A DNA stretch of 59,473 nt, the filler included, from Sphacelaria rigidula (lineage: Eukaryota), in assembly GCA_964200075.2 (NCBI GenBank). It is 7 parts of 7 records of this genome, joined end to end, with 100 filler letters (N's around TTAATTAATTAA, not from the genome) between each part and the next. Parts side by side here need not be neighbours in the genome. Positions count along the whole stretch, not along the records: positions 8,512 to 16,922 come from CAXNAA020011233.1; 6 more parts are not named here. One strand, written 5' to 3'. This document shows, one piece after another, positions 5,874 through 50,963 of the stretch; position 1 is the stretch's first letter, and every line of letters starts with the position of its first letter. The notes beneath the pieces were generated by a model. It ran no database searches. It worked only from the letters and a program-made list of their open reading frames with translations, and was not told the DNA's origin. A program made the position numbers and the translations under genes.

Positions 5874-6349
5874 TCAAGCCTTTTGTGAGTTATTGAAGTT
5901 CTTGATGAGATTCATAAGGTAACGGAACCTCTGAGTTGCAAGGAACTTTGTTCCAATGTTAGCTATTTGATTCTTTGTTTCAATGTAATGAACTGTGATC
6001 TTCCCAGATTCCACCAATTCCCTCATGAAGAAAAAACGCAGAGCGACGTGTTCCGTCCTTCCGCTGAAAATACGGTTGGCAATCACTTGAAGAGTTGCTA
6101 TGTTGTCCAGGTAGATAGGTACAGTGTTGAGCGATGATCCACATCCCATCTCAATAATCATATTCGAGCAATAGACCGCCTCCTTGATGGCAATAGCTCC
6201 GGCAACCAGTTCCGCTTCCATCGTTGATTGTGCAGTAAGTCCCTGTAGCCTGACTTTAAAGGTGACCGGGGTTTCGCCGGCATGATGATGTTTGATGACG
6301 TGGATTTGGAGTTGGCGGGATTGTTCCCCCAGATTGCGTCAGAAAGCCC
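5874..6349 (-). pseudogene. Copia RNase H domain (frameshifted)
   Basis: SDAIWGNNPANSKSTS, TAQSTMEAELVA, IYLDNIAT, RTEHVALRFFFMRELV, NQIANIGTK. Confidence 0.92.
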
Positions 6350-7311
6350 GTCGACTTGCTGATGTACTTAAAACCCCCAATTGTTTCTGGGGTAATCGGT
6401 CCCATCATATCACCAATTATTAGTTCGTATGGACGAGATACTTCGCAGACGATGGTCTTGGGGTGAGCCTGTTGTTCACTTTTGCCCAACGCACACGTGT
6501 CGCACGGAGAAAGATTCCCCGTGAAAAACACCCCATTCCCGTCGATGCCTCGTATCGTATGAAGTGTCTGGCTAGACACGTGTCCGAGGCGCCGGTGCCA
6601 CAATTCTGCGTCCGCCGTTGTTAACATCGCCACTGTATTTGTTGTTTCCCCTTCGGCTGAAGCCACCTGCCTCCCTGTACCCGCGCCGGCCGAACGATCC
6701 ACGCGTATGATGAATGTGTATAGACCGTGGTCATGGAGCGACTGTTTCAGGGATAGTTGGAAAGATGCGACTTCCAAGCGTGGATCCGCCGGGTCGAACA
6801 CGACGTTGATTCCTCTTGTAACAGCGTTCTTGACGGAGAACAAATGGTGCCCCAGACCTTGTACTTCAAAAGATGGGAGAGATACTTCGTAAGAGACTCC
6901 CTGTTGGTCTGTTACCGTTCCTAGGACAGTAACTGAAGCTGTAGCATTTAACACATGATCTCCGGCCGCAGTTATTTGAAAGAGATTGGGAAAAATGGTG
7001 TAGTCGGGAACGGTCTCCAGTAAGCCAGGATTCAAAAAGTTGTCAAGAAAATTCTCGGTTGTCCCGCTGTTGACCAGTAGGGAGAGTAGAGTATCAGAAG
7101 CCAGCAAAGCTACACCCATGGTGGGATGTCCCGTTCTACTTTCCGTGAATTCCCCGATCGCTACATATGTCCGACCGTCCCCGGCGGGTGGCACTCCAGG
7201 CTGAATCGGTCTCCCGAGGGAGAGAGTTGAAGCTGGTTGATTGACAAAAGACATCGTAGCCGGGGGCCATAGCAGAACATGATAAGCCTTCATTCTGAGC
7301 TGTGGGGCCAC
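6350..7311 (-). pseudogene. Copia protease, GAG-pre-integrase and start of integrase
   Basis: LLVNSGTTENF (DSG changed to NSG), LGHHLFSV, LWHRRLGH...CDTCALGK, GDMMGPITPETIGGFKY. Confidence 0.9.
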
Positions 7312-7323
7312 TGACCGCTGTAC

Positions 7324-7700
7324 CTACAGCTTCTGAACTACCACAGCTGGGTATCTTGTTGCTGTAGCACCAGCCGTTGGTTGCGACTGGTGTGCGGGTG
7401 CACCGATGACTGCGTTAGAAGGGTACGCTGCCATATGCGCGTAGTGCGCCACACAAGCAGCGGCACTCTCTTTTTGAATGCGGCAGTCAGCATCGTCATG
7501 TGTTTTGGAACGATGATGAGAGCACCACTTCGCCGTTTTCTCTTTACCGTTCATAGTATTGCTCCCTTTTGCCCTTCCCCCTCCGCGTTGTGACGAACTC
7601 TCCTTTTTGGTTGCTTGAGAATTGGTGGGGCAATCCCGCCGGTAGTGTCCGAGTCTGTTGCAAGCGAAACACTTGATGCCTGCTGCCTCAGCAGACAGTG
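7324..7700 (-). pseudogene. Copia gag C-terminus with CCHC zinc knuckle
   Basis: IKCFACNRLGHYRRDCP (7621-7680) and WCSHHRSKTHDDADC. Confidence 0.85.
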
Positions 7701-7811
7701 CAGTGCCGGGTCCAGCATATTTCGTGGCCCGTGGCGAAGGATAAATAGTTTTATCTTTTGTATTATTGGAGAATGCCTAGACTGAGTTGACCCTATGACT
7801 GAGGGATCAGA

Positions 7812-8511: not shown

Positions 8512-9781
8512 CACGAACTTGCGTCTCCACGTTCGCGAGAGCCTCGGGGCCCACCTTAACAAGGGAGCGTGAAAAAGAAGTGAAGAGCAAGCTCGCATCC
8601 GAAAGCAGCATGTTGAGCTGTCGGCGTGACATCACCCCCCCCGGCGATCAATCCATCAGCATGCCGCTCGCACACTTCGCACTCCGCCCTTTTTTTTTGT
8701 TTGTGCTCAGTTTCAAGGGCACTGATTGCGGTAAATTCAAATGTCATCACTGATGAGTGCGGGATTTTAAGCTCTAACGTGTAGTTCCGGGGCTTAACGG
8801 GGCCGCTATGTAGCAAGTGTGGTCAATGCATTCAGAACTACGTCGCGTCTTCGGTGCTTCTTGCCCAGACACACGTAAAGACACATACACGGGCAGACAG
8901 GCAGAGAAGCAAGTCAGCCAGTTAGAGAGACAGAGAGACGGACCGACGGGCAGATACAAGACAGGCACACCCTTAGTCGGCAGTTTGCAGGTTCATGATG
9001 CAAAGTTGAACATCGCACGATTTGGATGCAGATTGACGGGCTCCGTGAAATCAAATCACCAGCCGAGTAACTGAACATACCCGCACCAGCAATAATTTGG
9101 GTCTTTCTTCGTCTGGGTCCGCGTCACGGTTGTACCGGTGGAGGTGTAACCGACGTGAGGAGGCGTTGTGGTATCCGGTACCACAATCAATTTGTTCATG
9201 TACTTGGGGGCTCTTTCACCATTACTCTGCAGGAACTAACAATACCATCAGCGATTAGCACGATAATGCTTGTGTTCAGGTGTTACTCATTCGCTCCTGG
9301 TTCTCAGGATGCTCTAGTCAGGAGAAAGTGGAGATGATACGCATTTCATTCGTGTAATAGACTGTATCTTGCTCAGTACTTGTAGGGTCACGTACAATAG
9401 CAAGGTCATGATGTGCACGCGAGACCCCTTTTTTTCGTGTCAGCGTGGTCAGGTTGCTGACCAGGTTCCAGGGCAGATGCACCACACTTTTTTGCACCGT
9501 ACGTATGACGGAAATAATAATTCCGACGTACGTCCTTGGCGGCGTGCTCCCTGCTGCTCCCCTCACCCAGCTCACTTCCACGAACATCCTCTCGTTCAAC
9601 GTGTTGGTTGCGTCCAGTACGGCTGCCCCTGAAAGTCGTTCAACTGACGGTGAGTGGGTTACATGTTCCAGTCGAGGCGCCGCTGTAGGTGTTCTCGCAT
9701 TGCTCACATGTCAAACGGTATGTCCACGGTTAACGAAGTATAATAGCGTATGTTGGTCTTTCACGGGATGACGAGCATCTC

Positions 9782-9992
9782 TGTGATGCGTGAGAGGACC
9801 GCGTGCTTCGAGGACCGCGCCGTAGTTCAAAGCACCCCAGGATGAACGTTTTTCAAAACCAATCGGGCCAGTCCCTGCAGGTACGACGCCCCTGACTGAA
9901 ACCCCGACCCTAACCCCGACCCCAATCATAACCATCGGGATGTTCAAATCCCGGTGCGATCCTCCAAGCCCGCGGTCCTCTCACGCATTACA
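9782..9992 (+). mobile_element. TGT...ACA MITE family, copy 1
   Basis: ~37-bp TIR TGTAATGCGTGAGAGGACCGCGTGCTT...; internal CCCTAA-like repeats. Confidence 0.85.
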
Positions 9993-10151
9993 AACACGGG
10001 GTGAGTGGAACGGCATTCTAGCCTTGGTCCCCAACCCCGTCAGGCTTACTTCATTGTTGATCGTCGAACTGGAGACGTGAGGATCTTTCTCGCCTCGACC
10101 CGTTTTGCCTGAGTGCACATCATGGACCATCTATTACGCCATCTATTACGT

Positions 10152-10362
10152 TGTAATGCGTGAGAGCACCGCGTGCTTCGAGGACCGCGCTGTAGTTCAA
10201 AACACCTCAGGATTGATGTTTTTCGAAACCAATTGGGTCAGTCTCTGCAGGTACCACGCCCCTGACCATGAACCCAACACTAACCCCAACCCTAACCCCA
10301 ACCATGGGAATGTTCAAATTCCGATGCGGTCCTCTAAGCACGCGGTCCTCTCACGGATTACA
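10152..10362 (+). mobile_element. TGT...ACA MITE family, copy 2
   Basis: Full TIRs; flanks ACGT/ACTT fit a 4-bp TSD with one mismatch. Confidence 0.85.
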
Positions 10363-10750
10363 ACTTCGTCGACATACGTACTGGATTCTTTGTCTCCCGC
10401 AATACATCTGCAGTCGACACTGTACGTAGGACACGTTTCGACAAGCTGATATTTTGTCCAGGGTGTGCTGTAGTGTTGCTTCCGTAGCGGGGAAGTGGCG
10501 TTTTTCTCTATTCTAGGTGCGCTTGTTCATTTCCTGCCTTTTCCGTGGTCGATGTGTCTGACCTGGGGGCAAAGGATGCGCACAGTGTGCAGGTATGGCT
10601 CGAGCTCCGCCATTTCGATGAGGTGATGACTGGCACTCCCTGCCATATGTAGTACAGTAGTCAATCCGGAAGCGAAGAAGCCAGTGGTGGCCGTGACGTC
10701 CTGCCATGGCTGTCGATCTGTCTCACTCCGTCAAAAGTCACATCAGTGGA

Positions 10751-10973
10751 TGTAACGCGTGAGAGCACCGCGTGATCGGGGGACCGCATCGGATCTTGAT
10801 CATCCCTACGGTCAGGGTCAGTGTCGGGGTTGAGGTTGGTGCTCGTGCTGGGGTTGGGGTCAGGGGCGCGGTTCCTGCAGGGATTGGCCCGATTGGTACA
10901 GAGAAGGGTCAATCCGGAGGTATTTTGTGCTACCATGCGATTCTTCAAGCACGCTGTGCTCTCAGGCATTGCA
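10751..10973 (-). mobile_element. TGT...ACA MITE family, copy 3
   Basis: Reverse-oriented diverged copy with both TIRs. Confidence 0.8.
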
Positions 10974-11455
10974 GCAATCATGATAACGTACTTCACGGTG
11001 AAGCGCTGACTTGACATATCATTGCTTGGGGCGGGTTGCCGACACATGCGTGTCCATTGCACAACTGGCGCTCGCCGACCGCGGTGCAGACGTTCGAGGG
11101 CGATCCAGATGTGATGAGAAGTTTCGAGACATGATGTGCCGGACACCGCGTTGGGCTCCGAAACACCACCCGTTTTTCTCGACGTGGATGACTAATGTAA
11201 CATACATCACTCACTCACTCTGCTGCTCCAACGTGATGCTTCGTCCTTCCTCACAGTCGCTGACCGTCTGGTTTTGAGGGGCTAGGGAAGGCAACAGTAG
11301 GGTTTGTACCGACAGCTGTCATGCATTGTTCAGAGTGCAACGATGCTCACCTCCCACGTCTAGTCGAGTGGAGTACGCGTGACTTCGTGCAGGAACCGAG
11401 CGGTGGATGTCACACGACTGAACTATGTCCGCCACAAACTCTGTGGAGTCCACCC

Positions 11456-11629
11456 CGTCATGCGTGGGAGTTCTCATGTGTGGAGTTGGGGTCAGGGTTG
11501 TTGTTGGTGCCATGGTCAGAGGCGTGGTACTTGCAGGTACTGCCCGATAGGTTTTGGGAAACGTCGATCCTGATGTGCTTTGAATTACGGTGCGGACCTC
11601 CGAGCACGCGGTCCTCCCACACGAGAACA
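11456..11629 (-). mobile_element. TGT...ACA MITE family, copy 4 (partly deleted)
   Basis: Shared core CAGAGGCGTGGTACTTGCAGG and TIR remnant. Confidence 0.7.
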
Positions 11630-11782
11630 CAGATCCCCCCCCCCCTCCCTGATGAGCGAACAGTTGTAATAAAACGTGTCCCCATGCCCCGCGTTCCAAG
11701 AGGAAACGCCCGAATGCAAATAACTCCAACCCACTGAACTTTTGAATTTACATCGTTATGGTCTGACAGGATCACCAGCGAC

Positions 11783-11864
11783 ATGTGGTCAGCCAGGCAG
11801 CTGTATGTTTGCGTGGTGGGCATCATCTTCTGCTTGTCGCTGTCATGCAGCCCCGCGGTGGGAG
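11783..11864 (+). CDS. Exon 1 of secreted Lys/Gly-Asp/His/Tyr diblock protein: signal peptide
   Basis: gacATG start; MWSARQLYVCVVGIIFCLSLSCSPAVG has n/h/c regions and an A-x-G cleavage site; donor G|GTACGT, phase 1. Confidence 0.75.
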
Positions 11865-11927
11865 GTACGTACTCCATGGGTAGTTCGCAATCGTGGTAGA
11901 TCTCTGCGGTAGACCTTGTCGGAGACC

Positions 11928-12107
11928 TATAATGCGGAAGGTGACCGCGTGCACCTGAACACCTTGGGTGTCGATTGTCGGGTGTCGGGGTTGGGGGTGG
12001 CGGTGGCGTTGGCGTTGGGTTCACAGCTGGGGCCAGGGGCGAGGTCCCTGCAGGAAGCGACCCGGTTGATGATGAAGGACGTCGATCCTGGGGTGTTTTC
12101 AGCTATG
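11928..12107 (-). mobile_element. TGT...ACA MITE family, copy 5 (truncated, inside intron 1)
   Basis: Diverged core and GGGTTG-type hexamers. Confidence 0.65.
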
Positions 12108-12428
12108 AAACTGGCCACGGGCATCAAGTCTTCTCAAACATCCTGAAGGAATCCCGAACCGTCGTCGGCACCACTGAGCGCAAGTTTCATGGTGGAAGAC
12201 GAGCGTCTGGCTGTTGCTCCGAGATCTTTGACGCGGTGCAGTGGTTGGTTGGAATTGACTTCAAGGGGGTGGACATTCAAACCACAACGCACTATGTAAA
12301 TGAGAAATTCGGGAGGATTTGTTCAGGGACAATTCCCGATGTGCCTTGCACCGTCACTGTGTGATACAACGAATCGATGCCGAACACCCGCCGCTCTCCC
12401 GTTTGTGTTGCTCGGTTCCGTACCACAG

Positions 12429-12536
12429 AGTCAACGACACCGCTTCAACGTACCCCCGATGCCGTCACTCCGGGCGCGGAGGATCATGCCTGGGCGATGC
12501 AAGCTGGCTTGCTGACCCACGCATCAGCTACTGAGG
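12429..12536 (+). CDS. Exon 2 of the diblock protein: propeptide-like spacer
   Basis: ~100-nt AG-free stretch, then CCACAG acceptor; 108 bp, phase 1-1; STTPLQRTPDAVTPGAEDHAWAMQAGLLTHASATE; donor G|GTGAGA. Confidence 0.7.
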
Positions 12537-12855
12537 GTGAGACGGAGAAGCGTGTAGGGGGGATGATGCACCGCCATGACTAAGTTCGAGTCGTACTACG
12601 ACGCAGTCGACCATTTGCGGTGTGATGATCTGAATGGAGGGGACAATTTCAGCGACATTCGTCCCTCCTTCCGTAGTGGGGACGGACGTTTATCCATCTC
12701 ACCCGTCTACCGGCATGAACCTTGACTTGACGTACAAGACTTGATGGAGGTGGGGCACTCCTTTTTTCTCGTGTACTGTTCCGTTGGCAACCGATATCAA
12801 CATTGTCGTGTCCGATGCGTCGATCCCGACGATTCCTTCTGCGACGTCAATACAG

Positions 12856-13232
12856 GTGACTCTGAACGGGCCCTCTCGAAGGGCAAGAAGAAGAGGGGCA
12901 AGAAGGGCAAGGGGAAGAAGGGCAAGAAGGGCAAGAAGGGCAAGGGGAAGAAGGGCAAGAAGGGCAAGGGGAAGAAGAAGGGCGGAAAGGGCAGGGGGAA
13001 GAAGGGTAAGAAGGGCAAGGGCAAGAAGAGCGACGACTACGACGACGACCACTACGACGACGACCACTACGATGACGACGACCACTATGACGACGACCAC
13101 TACGATGACGATGACCACTACGACGATGACCACGATGATGATGACTACAGTGACGGCTACGACTACGGCATGTACCCAAAATACGACTACGACACGTACA
13201 CCGCAGACGTCTACGACGACATGTACTATTGA
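12856..13232 (+). CDS. Exon 3 (terminal) of the diblock protein: RAL site, K/G block, D/H/Y block, stop
   Basis: ~100-nt AG-free stretch, then TACAG acceptor, phase 1; G/C-ending codons (AAG, GGC, GAC, TAC, CAC); non-repetitive Tyr-rich tail ending YY-TGA. Confidence 0.85.
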
Positions 13233-14336
13233 CTAGAGTGGCAGTCGTAACCGAGCTCACGTCTTGGGGTTGGCTGATGAGATCGTATTCATCCTCCTCT
13301 CACTGTAGTCGAACGTCGACTAGTTGTATCAAGACATACCATGGTTCCGATTGGTGTGGGTTTGATATCGAGTGTCCGTAAGCACTTGAAAACCTGTACA
13401 TAATGTTTGAAGTTGGGACGTCGTGAGGATGTTTGCCCGTAATTTCACTGGCTGGCGCCGGAAGCCGCTGGATTCACTCGCTTGGTGTTGTACTGTGTGT
13501 ACCCCGTAGTTTGTCTCATGTATCACGTTTTTGTACTGTATTCCGCTGTGCCGTAGTATCGCCCTGTGCGCTTGCCTCGACGATTTTGTCCACGTCCTGT
13601 AGCTCGACTGGTCAAGCAGTTGTCGTTTGACGTGTGAAGTACTTCGCGCTGGTGTGGTGTGGAACCGCGAGGGACGGATCAGGAATTGTCTACAGCATGT
13701 TGAGGCGCTGTGTGGAGGAGTATGTACACCTTACACTTGACACGAGGGATTCGAGGTCATTTTAATGTGGAATTGTCGCCTGACGTCTCGACTACTGGGA
13801 AGCAGCATTGGTTCAGTCAATACCATGAAATACCGACTCGGAGCTTGGTCTATCGAACGGGATGGCGATATGTGAAGGGTGCTCGTGGCACCTCCTGCCA
13901 CTGTCCCACACCTCGCCTCAACGGCGGAGAGGGCGACACTCTCGCGTCCCCGAAGATTCCCAAAATTTTGGTACCTCCGCCGCAGGCGGCTAGACGAGAA
14001 ACGCAACGTCGACCTTCTGCATGGCGTAGTCTCGCCCGCGACGTCCGTGTACCCTAATCACATCTGAGTGCATCCGGAGTCACCGTTCAGTTGAACGATA
14101 ACCGGAGGCCGGGAGGCCGACATGACCCAGGAATAATTGCGCGTGTCCATATGTTGGGATGAGGTAATGAAATAACCGGAAGATTCTCTGTAGTGCATCC
14201 GCAGGTTCGTGTACGAGTGTGTGGTGCGCTGTCTTATCAGCTTCCCCACCATGTGGTCGTCAACCCGATTTCACGCCGGGTAGCGTTCCCCGAGGGAAAT
14301 GGCACGATACGTATGTGGCACATGTCTGCTTCCTGT

Positions 14337-14525
14337 CGTGATGGGTAAGAGGACGGTGTGCGTGGAGGTCCGCATCGGAAGTTGGATATTCTCATGGTAA
14401 GGGTTGGGGTTGGTGCCGGCGTTGTGGTCAGGGGCGTGGTACTTCCAGGGACTGACCTGATTGGTTTTGAAAAACCTCGGTCGTGTGGTGTCTTGGTCTA
14501 CGGCGCGGTCTCCTCACGCACTATG
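14337..14525 (-). mobile_element. TGT...ACA MITE family, copy 6
   Basis: Diverged reverse copy. Confidence 0.7.
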
Positions 14526-15539
14526 GTTGCCAACCCAGCACGACAACGGAGCCGTCCCCGCTCTGTCTTTGCACACAACGAGACAAACCAACCAAGCACA
14601 ACTGTGCTGTATAATACCCAAATGAACGCGTAACCAACGGTTGTGAGAAATGTGTGCAAGCAAAAAAAGAAAGAAGAAACAAGGGAATTTTGGCTGTGCA
14701 GAGAGAAGAGAATTGATGAATGTAGTTCAAGCTCCCTACCTCCCTGTACTCCACGCCACGGCAGTCTCATCTCTCAACTACGACATCTACCTGCCGTTGG
14801 TTCGCTGTCGCCTCATGACAGCACCTGGCAACCTGGTCACAGGAGGCACCCGTCGGCCCTTTTCGTCACGTCAAGGTTGCCCGTTGTGACGCTCTCTCTG
14901 GATGATTTATCCCCACAACTTACCCCACACGAATCAATCACCCACACGCATATATACTTCGGCATTATGCGTCAAAACAGGTGCGAATGTCTTGCTGTTG
15001 AGACTTGCTGTTCCTAGCATGCGCTTTGATCTATGTGCATGCCTTCTCGAGGTGATATGACACATCTTCCATGCAACCCTTCCTGGCTGTAGCCTTCAAC
15101 TTTCCAACTTCTTCTGCTACGACTACATCAGGAGGCGAGTTGATAATTTCTGAGCTTCTGTCTTCAACGTTGCCAGCGTCGCCGGAATCTTCCTCGCTTT
15201 GTACCATTGCCCTGCCGCACACGACATGGCTTTCAAGCTCACGGCTGACTTGTAGCCTTGCTCTACTCACTAAAGTGTTCGCTTTTATGCCCAGTCTGCA
15301 CAAAGTTAGTGGGTGCGTAGTTCTATGCCGAAACCAGATGATATGCCGTGTACCGAACCCCGAGGAAAAAGCGGCATGAAGATCATATTGTTCGTGTACC
15401 CTGAAAAAAACGGCATACAAATTATCTGGCATATAATAATCGGCACAAAATCGGGTCCACTACCGTATCAGGGAAATGGGCGCCCATCACGGTCTCCTAC
15501 TCGCCTTCATGCTCTGGGTTCTGGGAAGGTGAGGCGGGA

Positions 15540-16210
15540 GTTGGACTGGTCTCCGGAACGTTGTAACGGTTCAGCACCTCCGCCATGAACCGGATTTGTG
15601 CAATATCCCGAATACACCCATCCCGGCCCCTTCTGTTCTAGAGTTTCCTCAACTCTTCATGATATCGTCCACCCCGAAGACCATCATCGCCACGGTGTAA
15701 TGCGTGAGAGGATCGCGTGCTTAGGGGACCGCGGTGTAGTCCACAACACCCGAGGATCGACATCTTTTTACACCTATCGGGCCAGTCCCTGCAAGTACCA
15801 CGCCCCTGACCCTAACCCTAACCCTAACCCTAACCCTAACCCTGACCCTAACCATACGGATATTCAAATTCAGATGCGATCCTCTAAGCACGCGGTCCTC
15901 TCACGCATTACAACGACGTCACCAGGGCCCCTCAGTCGAGAACCCCGGGGCCTACCGAGCATTGCCCGAAACCACACTCCACCAGTTGGGCTGGTCTCCG
16001 AAACGTTGTAACGGTTCAGCACCCCCGCCATGAATTGGGTTTGTGCAGTATCCCGGGTACATCCATCCCAGCCTCTTCTCTACTCGAATTCCCCCAGCTC
16101 TTCATGATACCGTCCACGCGAAAGACCATCATCGCCACGGCGTCACCAGGGCCCTTCAGTCGAGGAACGCAGGGATCTACCGAGCATTGCCCGAAACCAC
16201 ACTTCACCAA
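15540..16210. repeat. Tandem duplication (~225 bp) within the RT; the first copy carries a MITE
   Basis: GTTGG(A/G)CTGGTCTCCG...CCGAAACCACACT present twice (starting ~15540 and ~15985). Confidence 0.9.
15696..15912 (+). mobile_element. TGT...ACA MITE family, copy 7 (best preserved), 4-bp TSD; Ginger-like
   Basis: 37-bp TIRs with 3 mismatches; the empty site in the duplicate (CGCCACGG^CGTCACC) gives TSD ACGG/ACGA; internal (CCCTAA)n. Confidence 0.9.
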
Positions 16211-47397: not shown

Positions 47398-48508
47398 CCT
47401 GCTTTGAGCATATCCAACACATAATTAAAAACGTTCTCGTAATCATTTTTCAGCATAATTACCCCTCGCTCCCTCCGCCTTCGTCCATTTATACACCCCC
47501 GTTCTTCTCCGACCCGCGGGGATCCCTGTGCCACCGGTGAAACATTCCTCACGAGTGTTTAACAGCACGAGAAATACGACAAAAACAGTAGGGGACTCTT
47601 GACTCAATTCGCAATACATAAAACACTACAGTAATGCACACGTAGAAAACCACACGATCGTTTTGCGTCTTTGGGAGGGGAGGGGGGGGGGGGGGGGGGG
47701 GGGGTGGCGGTGGCAATAGTTACATTAATATTAATCCTCTCTCTCTCTACGGTAACCTAGTACATCTATTTACCCACGGCGGCCAAGCATTTGTACTGTT
47801 TTATTTTCAGATTCATAAAACGAAAACATTTTTCATTTTTTTTCTCCCGCTCTAGTTTTGCGTTTACTGTTGGCTTCACAAAACCTCTGCATATTCGTTC
47901 ATGTGTAACACCCCCTGCAGCACCTCGTCTGGCACCCTGCAGTGCACATCTACCTCTGGTGCCCATCTCTCTGTCTCCTCTCTCAGAACCTTAGCTGCTA
48001 AGACCGTTAGAGTAGAGGGCGATCCTCGCACCTGGAAAGCACAACGCCGATAGGGTCGGGTCGGGTCGGGTCAAGTTAGCGTTGAGGCCTAGTAAGGATA
48101 GTTTGGGCTGGACTATGTTTCGTCAGGTCTGGTCGGGGTAAGGGATGGGGGTCGAGGTCAGGATGGGTTAGCACGGTTGGTCAGGCAGTGAGTCGTGTAC
48201 ACTATTGGCAGCGTTTTCCATATTAAGGAAATGCTGTCAGTCAACTATCCATGGACCGGTTTTCGCACAGCAATGGTCACTATCGTGACCAGAAAGTGAA
48301 TGGATCGCGCACGATTGACTCGGAGCGCGTAGCAAAGTAGGAAGCAAAGAACAAGGTTGGATGCGCGTTTTGTACCCCCGTCTCCGCAGAAAACGTAACA
48401 CCCTCGTACCACCTCTGTTGCACTACCGCGACCAACCCGGCGACTACCGCCGCTGCCACCAACAACAACGACAACAACCGCCACTACGACAACACACCGC
48501 CCGCTTGC

Positions 48509-48787
48509 CTGATACCGCCAGACGTCATTGTAGCGTATGTCGCCGTTGGCACCGCTGAAAAGATACAAAGATCCGTCGTGGAAGACTGCGGAGTGAAACG
48601 CCCTCGCAGGGGGGCTGGGCTCCCCAGCTTCGGCGGTCAAGCGTCTCCAGGAGGTGCTCTCACAGTTGTACACGTAGAAGTCGGCTAAACGGCTGAGCTC
48701 TCCGGTGAAACCTCCCCACAGGTAGATATCCCCTGCTACTGGGTCGAAACTACAGCTGTGCGCTACTCTGGCCTTGGGAAGATCGCC
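48509..48787 (-). CDS. Internal exon encoding two Kelch repeats
   Basis: P.AR.AHS...IYLWGG...DFYVY...W and PPARAFHSAV...LYLFSG...NDVWRY; ACCAG acceptor; probable CAG|GCAAGC donor; 279 bp phase 0-0. Confidence 0.9.
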
Positions 48788-49683
48788 CTGGTCGTCGTTG
48801 TTGTGGGGGGGGGATTGGAGATTGGAGTGAGGACGGGAAAAACACGAGTGAGAGTTGTGAGAGTTTTCGAGGGAATGTAAAGGTGATGGTGCGGATATGG
48901 CGTCGACCAGGAAGGATACCCTGTCGTTGGTTGGTCCGTTGATTGATTGGTTGTCACGCGTTGGCTCGTCTGTCGCAATTATGCTCATGCGGGAGACGGA
49001 AATGGGTAAATCAATAGTGAACCGAGCGGGAAGACGCGCTCCACCGTGAGAGAGGATATGGCCTGGTTACACACATAAAGGTATGGTCTGGTAGCCTGTG
49101 ACCACGGATCAGAGAGATCGGGCTAATGTGCGGAAATAATAATAATACATCGTAGCAATGATATTGATGATGATGGTGATAATATACTAATAGTGGCCAT
49201 AGTAATGCACTAATTAATAACAATGAGAATGACAATGATAATGACGGAATTAATGATGATGGCAAAAAGAAAAACAAGAGCAAGAACAAGAACCGTAATC
49301 ATAGTAGTAGTAGTAGTGCAGCCAGAAAACGCAAACGCGAAATATCAGCAAACCAAAGTCAATCACTGGTGATTTTCTCTCAACGCCGAGCGGTCAACGC
49401 GCAATTCAACGCAGTTCAACTCATGAACCCGCAAGACGCCGTTTGCTTTTGTACTGTTGTAGCGTAAAGTGAAGGATGTAGACGCACTTGATGTGCACAT
49501 GGGTGGCGTTCGACGCGGGTCGAGCGAGAATGCAAACCCGGCGAAAGAAGCTGACACGAAACTGATTTTTTATTGATCGTCGCATATGAATGGGTCCCTC
49601 CAGGGATACAGTCGTGGTCACAAGATGGACTTACCCAAGGCAAGCAGAAGCGTATACACTAGCTAAAGGAACCTCGACAAAGG

Positions 49684-50505
49684 TGACAGTAACAGTAGTG
49701 GCAATGGTAATGGCAATGGTAGTGGTAATAACAACGGTAATAGTAATAGTACTAGCAATGGTGATGGCAATAGTACTAGCAATGGTAATGGTAAAAGTAA
49801 TTGTAATAGTAATTGTAACGGCTCTAGTAATAGTAATAGTAATGGTAATGGTAGTGGTAGTGGTAGTAGTAATAGTATAGTAATGGTAGTGGTAATAGCA
49901 AAGGTAACAACAGTGATAGTACTAGCAATGGTAATAGTAATAGTAACTGTACTAGTAATTGTAACTGTACTAGTAATGGTACCAGTAATAGTAATAGTAA
50001 TGATAACGATAATGGTAATAGTGATTGTAGTGGTAGTAGCAACGGTAATAGTACTAGTGCTAGCACTAGCAATGGTAGTGGTGAATTTTATCGTTATAGT
50101 AACTGTAATAGTAATAGCACTAGTATTAGCAATGGTAATGGTGATTGTAATAGTAATAGAAATGGTAGTAGTAGTAGTAATAGTAATGGTAATAGTAGTA
50201 GTGGTAGTAGTAATAGTATAGTAATGGTAGTGGTAATAGCAAAGGTAACAACAGTGATAGTACTAGCAATCGTAATGGTAATAGTAACTGTACTAGTAAT
50301 TGTAACTGTACTAGTAATGGTACCAGTAATAGTAATAGTAATGATAACGATAATGGTAATAGTGATTGTAGTGGTAGTAGCAACGGTAATAGTACTAGTA
50401 CTAGCACTAGCAATGGTGATGGTAAATGTTATTGTTATAGTAATTGTAATAGTAATGGCACTAGTATTAGCAATGGTAATGGTGATTGTAATAGTAATAG
50501 AAATG

Positions 50506-50553
<48 letters not shown>

Positions 50554-50790
50554 ATGGTAATGGTAGTAGTAATGGTAATGGTAATGGTAGTGGAAATAGC
50601 AACGGTAATAGTGATAATACTAGTACTAGTACTACAATGGTCATGGTAAGTGTTATATTGTAATAGTGACTGTAATAGTGATGGTAATGGTACTAGTAAT
50701 AGTAATAGTAATAGTTCTAGTAATATTGTAGTAATATTGTAGTAATAATAACAGCAATAGTGATAGGGATAGGGATAGGGATAGTAATGT
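49684..50790. repeat. GTAATA/GTAATG-derived satellite with a 341-bp higher-order repeat
   Basis: Marker GTATAGTAATGGTAGTGGTAATAGCAAAGGTAACAAC recurs 341 bp apart; pure (GTA)n at ~50505-50553. Confidence 0.93.
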
Positions 50791-50963
50791 GTGTGTTGTT
50801 GTGTGTTGTCGTCCCATTTGTTCTGGACGCCAGTCTACTGTACCCCTTTCGGGATATGTGGGCACATCAGCCGGGGTCACACAGGAGGAAGGTCAACACA
50901 GGAGCGTTTTCTTTTTATTTGCTTTTAGTACCCCACCTTCCTTCTGCGGTGCTTGCCTTTATG
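50789..50963 (-). mobile_element. 3' end of the LINE/SINE family (second copy, cut by contig end)
   Basis: Matches 35657-35803. Confidence 0.8.

Follow-up and report, generated by a model that had tools for sequence, protein, structure and literature searches.

A spliced gene for a putative secretory precursor with an RxL motif at the border of a lysine-rich block and two blocks of opposite charge

Introduction

Does a tripeptide R-A-L that stands directly in front of a lysine-rich block mark the place where a secreted protein is cut, or is it there by chance? The question is raised by a locus in a eukaryotic window (the whole stretch of DNA analysed, 59,473 nucleotides), in which positions 12858-12881 of the plus strand read GAC TCT GAA CGG GCC CTC TCG AAG, that is, D-S-E-R-A-L-S-K. 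The original prediction had placed D-S-E-R-A-L immediately before the Lys block, and reading of the plus frame confirmed this. It had also proposed that the protein is a precursor of the silaffin type, and that the position of the motif is the evidence for this.

Processing at RXL is a hallmark of diatom biosilica proteins, and its range beyond diatoms and Parmales is barely charted. The published statements used here come from excerpts of the papers named. Silicanin-1 and other diatom biosilica proteins carry a signal peptide followed by an RXL domain (PMC5525289, PMC5647440). Removal of a pro-region at RXL is known from silaffins, and the excerpt of PMC5525289 describes the protease as still unidentified; mature silaffins do not contain the RRIL and RRNL of their precursors, and RXL was proposed as a general signal for an endopeptidase (PMC4557024). 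SiMat7-like proteins and SAPs have the same N-terminal RXL (PMC5501833, PMC5647440), which is regarded as the mark of pro-peptide cleavage in most biosilica proteins, Y-type cingulins excepted; the excerpt of PMC5647440 that says so adds that such cleavage "remains to be proven" and that biosilica proteins are the only ones so far in which RXL sites have been found. Silicanin homologues of Parmales also carry the RXL domain (PMC10328945). In oomycetes, RXLR effectors are cut after the Leu before secretion (PMC11754927).

Our literature search for silaffin-like proteins outside diatoms returned just the RXL domain of the Parmales silicanin homologues. When silaffins were searched for together with brown algae, only two papers of a general kind surfaced, in which silaffin was mentioned once, and a report in their text or in supplements is possible. 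Excerpts of the Phaeoexplorer preprint had no bearing on the question. The gene described here is a compact test substrate for such processing: it combines one signal peptide, as predicted, with one spacer, one RxL at the end of that spacer and a distinctive cargo.

Results and Discussion

Contigs support a gene with three exons

The window was matched by 18 runs from 9 studies; several of these were only guessed to be RNA and none was recorded as RNA, and one matching run of the DNA type carries the label "algae metagenome". We aligned the contigs of four public runs to positions 11000-15000, namely X1 and X2 (organism A), X10 (organism B) and X13 (organism C). Intron 1 (11865..12428, plus strand, 564 nt, GT..AG) was bridged by three contigs in X1, two in X2, one in X10 and one in X13; it was placed by the contig joint 11862->12427 (cut +2) and by the letters of the splice sites, with GAG|GTACGT at the donor. 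Intron 2 (12537..12855, plus strand, 319 nt, GT..AG) was bridged by 2+1 contigs in X1, 2+1 in X2 and two in X10, and by none in X13, with contig joints at 12535->12855 (cut +1) and 12536->12856. The GT..AG joints were thus seen in four runs for intron 1 and in three for intron 2, with three organism labels overall. Contigs joined without the introns have the form that mRNA gives, so exon 3 begins at 12856. The D-S-E-R-A-L-S-K site begins 2 nt inside exon 3, intron 2 ending at 12855, and the stretch of the genomic ORF 12726-13232 that precedes exon 3 belongs to intron 2 and is hence not protein-coding.

The coding part of exon 1 (11783..11864, plus strand) starts with ATG and holds 27 codons and one base; it is delimited by a rise in depth and by the joint at 11864. 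Exon 2 (12429..12536, plus strand) is 108 nt long. When 11783-11864, 12429-12536 and 12856-13232 were joined, they gave 567 nt, 188 codons and one terminal stop, and both exon junctions were in phase 1. The other two plus-strand frames are closed in exon 2 by stops at 12516-12518 and 12532-12534. Since exon 2 can be read through in a single frame, the reading of exon 3 as Lys/Gly followed by Asp/Tyr/His is the translated one. The ATG at 11783 is the first in-frame ATG downstream of an in-frame TGA at 11735-11737. The contigs cover the plus strand beyond the stop codon to about 13813 and then fall away, which makes 13233..13813 the probable 3' UTR, with an approximate, contig-based end.

It is conceivable that the locus is transcribed and spliced and never translated, the product being a non-coding RNA over expanded trinucleotide-type repeats. 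Tandem-repeat DNA makes up two thirds of the frame, and neither a Pfam family nor a homologue was found. However, 188 codons stay open over two phase-matched junctions, with a single open frame in exon 2, and the codon bias of the joined frame is strong (GC3 0.80; AAG in 30 of the 31 Lys codons and GAC in 27 of the 36 Asp codons). In addition, the two best-supported length variants in the Lys/Gly block among the rows listed are both in frame: a loss of 6 nt at 12951, present in five contigs of X1 and four of X2, and an insertion of 3 nt at 12997, present in one contig each of X1 and X2. We consider an untranslated RNA most improbable. The locus is best explained as a genuine gene that is spliced, codes for protein and gives a secretory precursor of 188 residues, the secretory part being a heuristic judgement.

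Several minor features of the contigs were also recorded. One contig of organism C shows changes of 1-2 nt at 13050-13060, in the acidic block. Loose contig ends point to further transcripts coding for Lys/Gly in the organism A runs. An unspliced contig over 11835-12313, which runs from the last part of exon 1 into intron 1, was seen in X1 (463 nt) and in X2 (357 nt); it differs from the window by about 6%, with 16 gaps, and could stem from a diverged allele or from another copy. The contigs of organisms B and C match the window at about 99-100% identity, 3' UTR included, so they come from the same or a near-identical genome, are not independent orthologues and are uninformative on conservation.

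The predicted protein has a signal-peptide-like start, an acidic spacer and two charged blocks

Residues 1-27, encoded by exon 1, carry an Arg at position 5, ahead of a hydrophobic core (about residues 6-20) that gives way to small residues, and the Kyte-Doolittle means over nine residues rise to 3.22 at residues 7-12. On hydropathy and reading by eye, the N-terminus appears signal-peptide-like, with the shape of an ER signal peptide. No transmembrane segment was found downstream of this stretch.

The spacer that follows (residues 28-70, 43 residues) is rich in Ala, Thr, Ser and Pro, has a net charge of -5 and ends in R68-A69-L70. It is encoded by exon 2, which supplies most of this acidic, Lys-free candidate propeptide, and by the first six codons of exon 3. 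The end of the spacer, (G)-D-S-E-R-A-L, occupies 12856..12875 on the plus strand, with the R-A-L codons at 12867-12875 and the proposed cut at 12875|12876. Residues 1-70 contain no Lys at all.

The Lys/Gly block (residues 71-122; 12876..13031, plus strand), delimited by tandem repeats and composition, has 30 K, 18 G, 2 R and 2 S in its 52 residues and a net charge of +32. It holds at least 5 K in every window of 12 residues and 6-9 K in every window of 14. Its DNA consists of imperfect tandem repeats with periods of 9, 24 and 33 nt (TRF). The second block, recognised in the same way by composition and repeats, comprises Asp/Tyr/His and a Tyr-rich tail (residues 123-188) and with the TGA stop at 13230-13232 takes up 13032..13232 of the plus strand. 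Its 66 residues (13032-13229) include 33 D, 16 Y and 6 H, with five D-D-D-H-Y units, and give a net charge of -32; 14 of the 16 Tyr have an Asp at most two residues away. The imperfect tandem repeats of its DNA have periods of 15, 18 and 33 nt, and the periods of both blocks are all multiples of three. Over residues 71-188 the charges of +32 and -32 cancel to a net charge of exactly 0.

A protein of this kind might also stay inside the cell, for example as a charged nuclear or nucleolar protein, with an N-terminus that is no signal peptide or belongs to a wrongly chosen start codon; R-A-L would then have no role in processing. Lys/Gly runs followed by acidic runs are known without a signal peptide, as in P0002, which has no hydrophobic N-terminus, and the signal peptide proposed here was assigned from hydropathy and by eye. 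Against this, the ATG at 11783, the first after an in-frame stop, leads into about 15 residues of hydrophobic character with small residues behind them, and no joint to an upstream exon is listed within 11000-11782, two skips of 0-2 nt aside. An intracellular protein seems to us quite improbable.

Targeting to a plastid was considered as well. In stramenopiles the plastid-targeting motif is an aromatic residue or Leu just after the signal-peptide cut. In our protein E or V would follow, depending on which of the two plausible cuts is taken, and the spacer carries a net negative charge; this destination was rejected.

No relative of the protein was detected

A word-indexed protein search with exon 3 scored 8000 candidates, none of which reached E <= 0.01, and the same kind of search with exon 2 and three intronic residues gave 12 candidates, none at E <= 1. 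An exhaustive phmmer search with exon 3 against 1.84 billion representative proteins yielded two matches at E ~1e-5; both were compositional, and no relative was detectable. There was no usable match in an Atlas search with exon 3 and no Pfam family in that exon. A metagenome scan with exon 2 gave 11 loci, all short chance matches, and none of the 11 had a K/G or an acidic run. Inside the window no paralogue was seen by tblastn or blastn, and three short motifs of the protein were absent from the literature searched.

The two proteins matched by phmmer were examined as possible homologues and set aside. P0002 is a protein with a Rho_N-like domain, situated at its end, and its similarity to our protein is compositional. 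P0003, an environmental sequence, had an E of 0.35 in composition-adjusted BLASTP. Each of its Lys/Gly blocks runs into R-K-L and then an acidic Glu/Tyr block, and the protein also has R-E-L and R-M-L immediately before Lys-rich stretches; by analogy, we read this as a similar layout in an unrelated protein.

R-A-L lies exactly at the block boundary

How often such a motif would be met by chance was estimated in two ways. Translation of the window in six frames gave ORFs with 56207 tripeptide positions, of which 380 (0.68%) are an RxL. When the 43-residue spacer was shuffled 200,000 times, an RxL was found anywhere in the spacer in 17% of the shuffles, within three residues (0-3) of the boundary in 1.8% and exactly at the boundary with the Lys block in 0.44%, although the true chance level must be several-fold higher than this last figure because the motif was chosen post hoc and a dibasic site, RxxR or RxxL at the boundary could equally have been flagged. 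No RxL occurs in the protein downstream of residue 70. A second one, R-Q-L at residues 5-7, lies within the signal-peptide-like stretch and is plainly no processing site, which means that the tripeptide does arise by chance. The caution in the original prediction that a tripeptide can occur by chance was thus well placed. Its argument that the position is the evidence holds in so far as the exact placement is rare among shuffles, and is weakened by the post hoc choice. On the sequence, we regard the position of R-A-L as suggestive but not decisive.

The protein may accordingly be read as truly secreted, with R-A-L there by chance, so that only the signal peptide would be removed and the acidic spacer kept. 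The frequency of RxL in the window and in the shuffled spacers fits this reading, as does the R-Q-L inside the signal-peptide-like stretch. No homologue with a conserved RxL emerged from the searches. Moreover, the middle residue is Ala, as against Arg in the diatom examples compared (RRL, RRIL, RRNL), among which there was none with RAL. On the other hand, the exact placement at the boundary is rare in the shuffles, and the succession of signal peptide, short acidic Lys-free spacer, RxL and Lys block copies the RXL domain as described. A scan of residues 28-75 for dibasic sites, RxxR, RxxL and RxL returned only R-A-L and the K-K at 74, which belongs to the Lys block and not to the spacer, so that among the motifs scanned the spacer contains no competing protease motif. 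A chance motif is a serious possibility to be reckoned with, though on balance we doubt it.

A different protease could also be responsible. If R-A-L-S were read as RXLX, a conserved Golgi subtilase of the site-1-protease/SBT6.1 type would cut after S71, leaving K72 as the first residue of the mature protein. According to excerpts of PMC4983112 and PMC7913133, SBT6.1 cleaves at RXXL and RXLX sites, for example RRLR and RRAL. The substrates of these enzymes are likewise secretory precursors cut in the Golgi at an Arg...Leu motif, and the silaffin sites RRIL and RRNL fit RXXL as well. However, residues 28-75 contain no RxxL, and the plant and animal sites compared carry a second basic residue, which R-A-L-S lacks. 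Cleavage of this kind appears improbable.

We therefore give some preference, tentatively and a little short of an even chance, to a secreted, charge-balanced precursor that would be cut after L70 as directed by its RxL; the cleavage is proposed from sequence features.

Comparison with known RXL proteins and other two-block proteins

The precursors of silaffins (Sil1p of Cylindrotheca fusiformis; tpSil) resemble the predicted protein in having a signal peptide, a pro-region ending in RXL and a basic, Lys-rich part of low complexity. The design is zwitterionic overall in both, and the Lys block has the density of the pentalysine clusters, 5 K in 12-14 residues, which according to the excerpt of PMC9650480 target silaffins and other proteins to silica. 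In contrast, there is no sequence similarity to silaffins and no family match. Silaffins are Ser-rich, whereas the Lys block is made of K and G with 2 Ser in 52 residues, and the negative charge that is added in silaffins is built in here as poly-Asp/Tyr/His. Proteins of the silaffin/silacidin type have Ser-rich basic repeats delimited by RXL (RRIL/RRNL); here a single RxL was found at the boundary. The original prediction of a silaffin-style precursor gains partial support from the gene model, which adds a signal-peptide-like start and an acidic Lys-free spacer that ends in R-A-L at the Lys block, while the Lys block proved nearly free of Ser, with one boundary RxL and no RxL-delimited repeats. 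Membership of this protein in the silaffin group is not established. Judged by analogy, its N-terminal layout matches the diatom arrangement of signal peptide, RXL domain and Lys-rich region, a match that does not imply cleavage.

In Silicanin-1, SAPs and SiMat7-like proteins, too, a short stretch behind the signal peptide ends in R-x-L; it has 30 residues in Sin1 and 43 here. These, however, are membrane proteins with folded or conserved domains, and in our protein there is no membrane span behind the signal peptide and no conserved domain. The cingulins and the Amphora proteins AC3362 and AC714 share with it Lys-rich and Tyr-rich regions of low complexity, and KG dipeptide repeats occur in AC714 and in the wall protein AC3362 (for the latter, an excerpt of PMC4220933). 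The search showed no similarity to any of them. Y-type cingulins have no N-terminal RXL, whereas an RxL is combined here with one K/G and one D/Y/H block of exactly opposite charge.

Effectors of the RXLR class in oomycetes are alike in that R-x-L lies in a disordered stretch soon after the signal peptide. They differ in that the fourth residue here is Ser and not Arg, there is no EER, and no RXLR is present within ~40-60 residues of the signal peptide, the range typical of the class. The cargo is also different: low-complexity, matrix-type protein in our case, an effector domain in theirs. In Plasmodium, the PEXEL motif RxLxE/Q/D is cut by plasmepsin V.

Outside these groups, the KRMP proteins of Pinctada are secreted matrix proteins of a biomineral that also have two modules, a basic domain and a Gly/Tyr domain (PMC4498902, in excerpt). 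They are unrelated animal proteins whose second module is Gly/Tyr and not poly-Asp, and the likeness is an analogy only.

A possible course of maturation

If the preferred reading is right, that is, RxL-directed cleavage of a secreted precursor, the signal peptide encoded by exon 1 would bring the protein into the ER and would then be removed. An RxL-recognising endoprotease of the secretory pathway would cut after L70 and free a mature protein of 118 residues beginning with S-K-G-K. This would be a two-block polyampholyte, +32 Lys/Gly fused to -32 Asp/Tyr/His, with a net charge of 0. It would most likely be a matrix component that associates with itself or binds polyanions, cations or mineral, either outside the cell or in a secretory compartment. 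So read, the gene codes for a secretory precursor of the RXL type whose K/G and D/Y/H cargo is an orphan and exactly balanced in charge, a reading that is plausible and partly supported.

Two kinds of modification can be envisaged, both apart from the preference stated for the cut. The excerpt of PMC7913133 reports that the activity of plant TPST drops when an acidic residue beside the Tyr is replaced, and the Asp-flanked Tyr of the acidic block are plausible candidates for sulfation or cross-linking. Modification of Lys as in silaffins is possible, provided that the host has the machinery.

The original prediction had suggested that, should the host be a brown alga, silaffin-style precursors would be extended to a lineage without silica frustules. 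If the host is a non-silicifying alga, the gene would tie the RXL rule of diatoms to the cut after Leu in the RXLR proteins of oomycetes as a secretory step shared by stramenopiles. Taken to its full length, the idea is that a non-diatom host, possibly a brown alga, which the long introns and the gene-poor, repeat-rich window would permit, uses a propeptide convertase for RxL like that of diatoms and oomycetes, by a stramenopile-wide rule, and so frees an orphan single chain of 118 residues that would act as a "built-in complex coacervate" in the wall, an adhesive or a mineral matrix. We think this unlikely and offer it as speculation. Whether or not the cut takes place, a natural protein with two blocks of exactly opposite charge and no relative detected in a search of 1.84 billion representative proteins is of interest for studies of matrix, adhesion and coacervation.

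Surroundings of the gene

Pfam was run on 134 ORFs of the window and recognised nothing beyond a copia-type remnant and a Kelch ORF; a set of 124 ORFs, each 100 residues or longer, had no family at all, and in the same window there was no Rfam match and no tRNA gene. The retroelement remnant (5874-7776, minus strand) is scattered across several frames and has a zinc-knuckle gag, a GAG-pre-integrase domain and an RNase-H-like ORF, with the gag/zinc-knuckle part at 6256-7776. The Kelch-repeat ORF (48245-49066, minus strand; PF24681, E 2.3e-22) is the only other recognisable cellular gene in the 59 kb. Its relatives were found only at 33-47% identity, and the taxa given for them in the Atlas were generic Eukaryota.

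In its 59 kb the window holds only three genes that could be recognised, together with many dispersed repeats, and in the gene described here the introns of 564 and 319 nt stand against a CDS of 567 nt. Long introns in a gene-poor, repeat-rich window are presumably more in keeping with an algal genome that is large and rich in introns than with the compact genomes of model diatoms.

Around the gene, within 9781-16143, copies of a dispersed repeat family of about 60-210 nt were seen in both orientations, for example at 9782-9993, 10152-10363, 10816-10974, 11485-11620, 14383-14514 and 15696-15907; one copy lies just 5' of exon 1. Telomere-like arrays of CCCTAA / CCCAACCCTAAC were noticed inside this family at 10273-10303 and 15804-15853. 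A run of N at about 33990, which shows up as a row of X when either strand is translated, was read as an assembly gap. A region of low GC content (0.37) at 49666-50834 consists of simple repeats and is open in several frames on both strands, where the translations are rich in Asn/Gly/Ser, in Thr/Ile or in Val/Ile; this is probably satellite DNA that does not code for protein.
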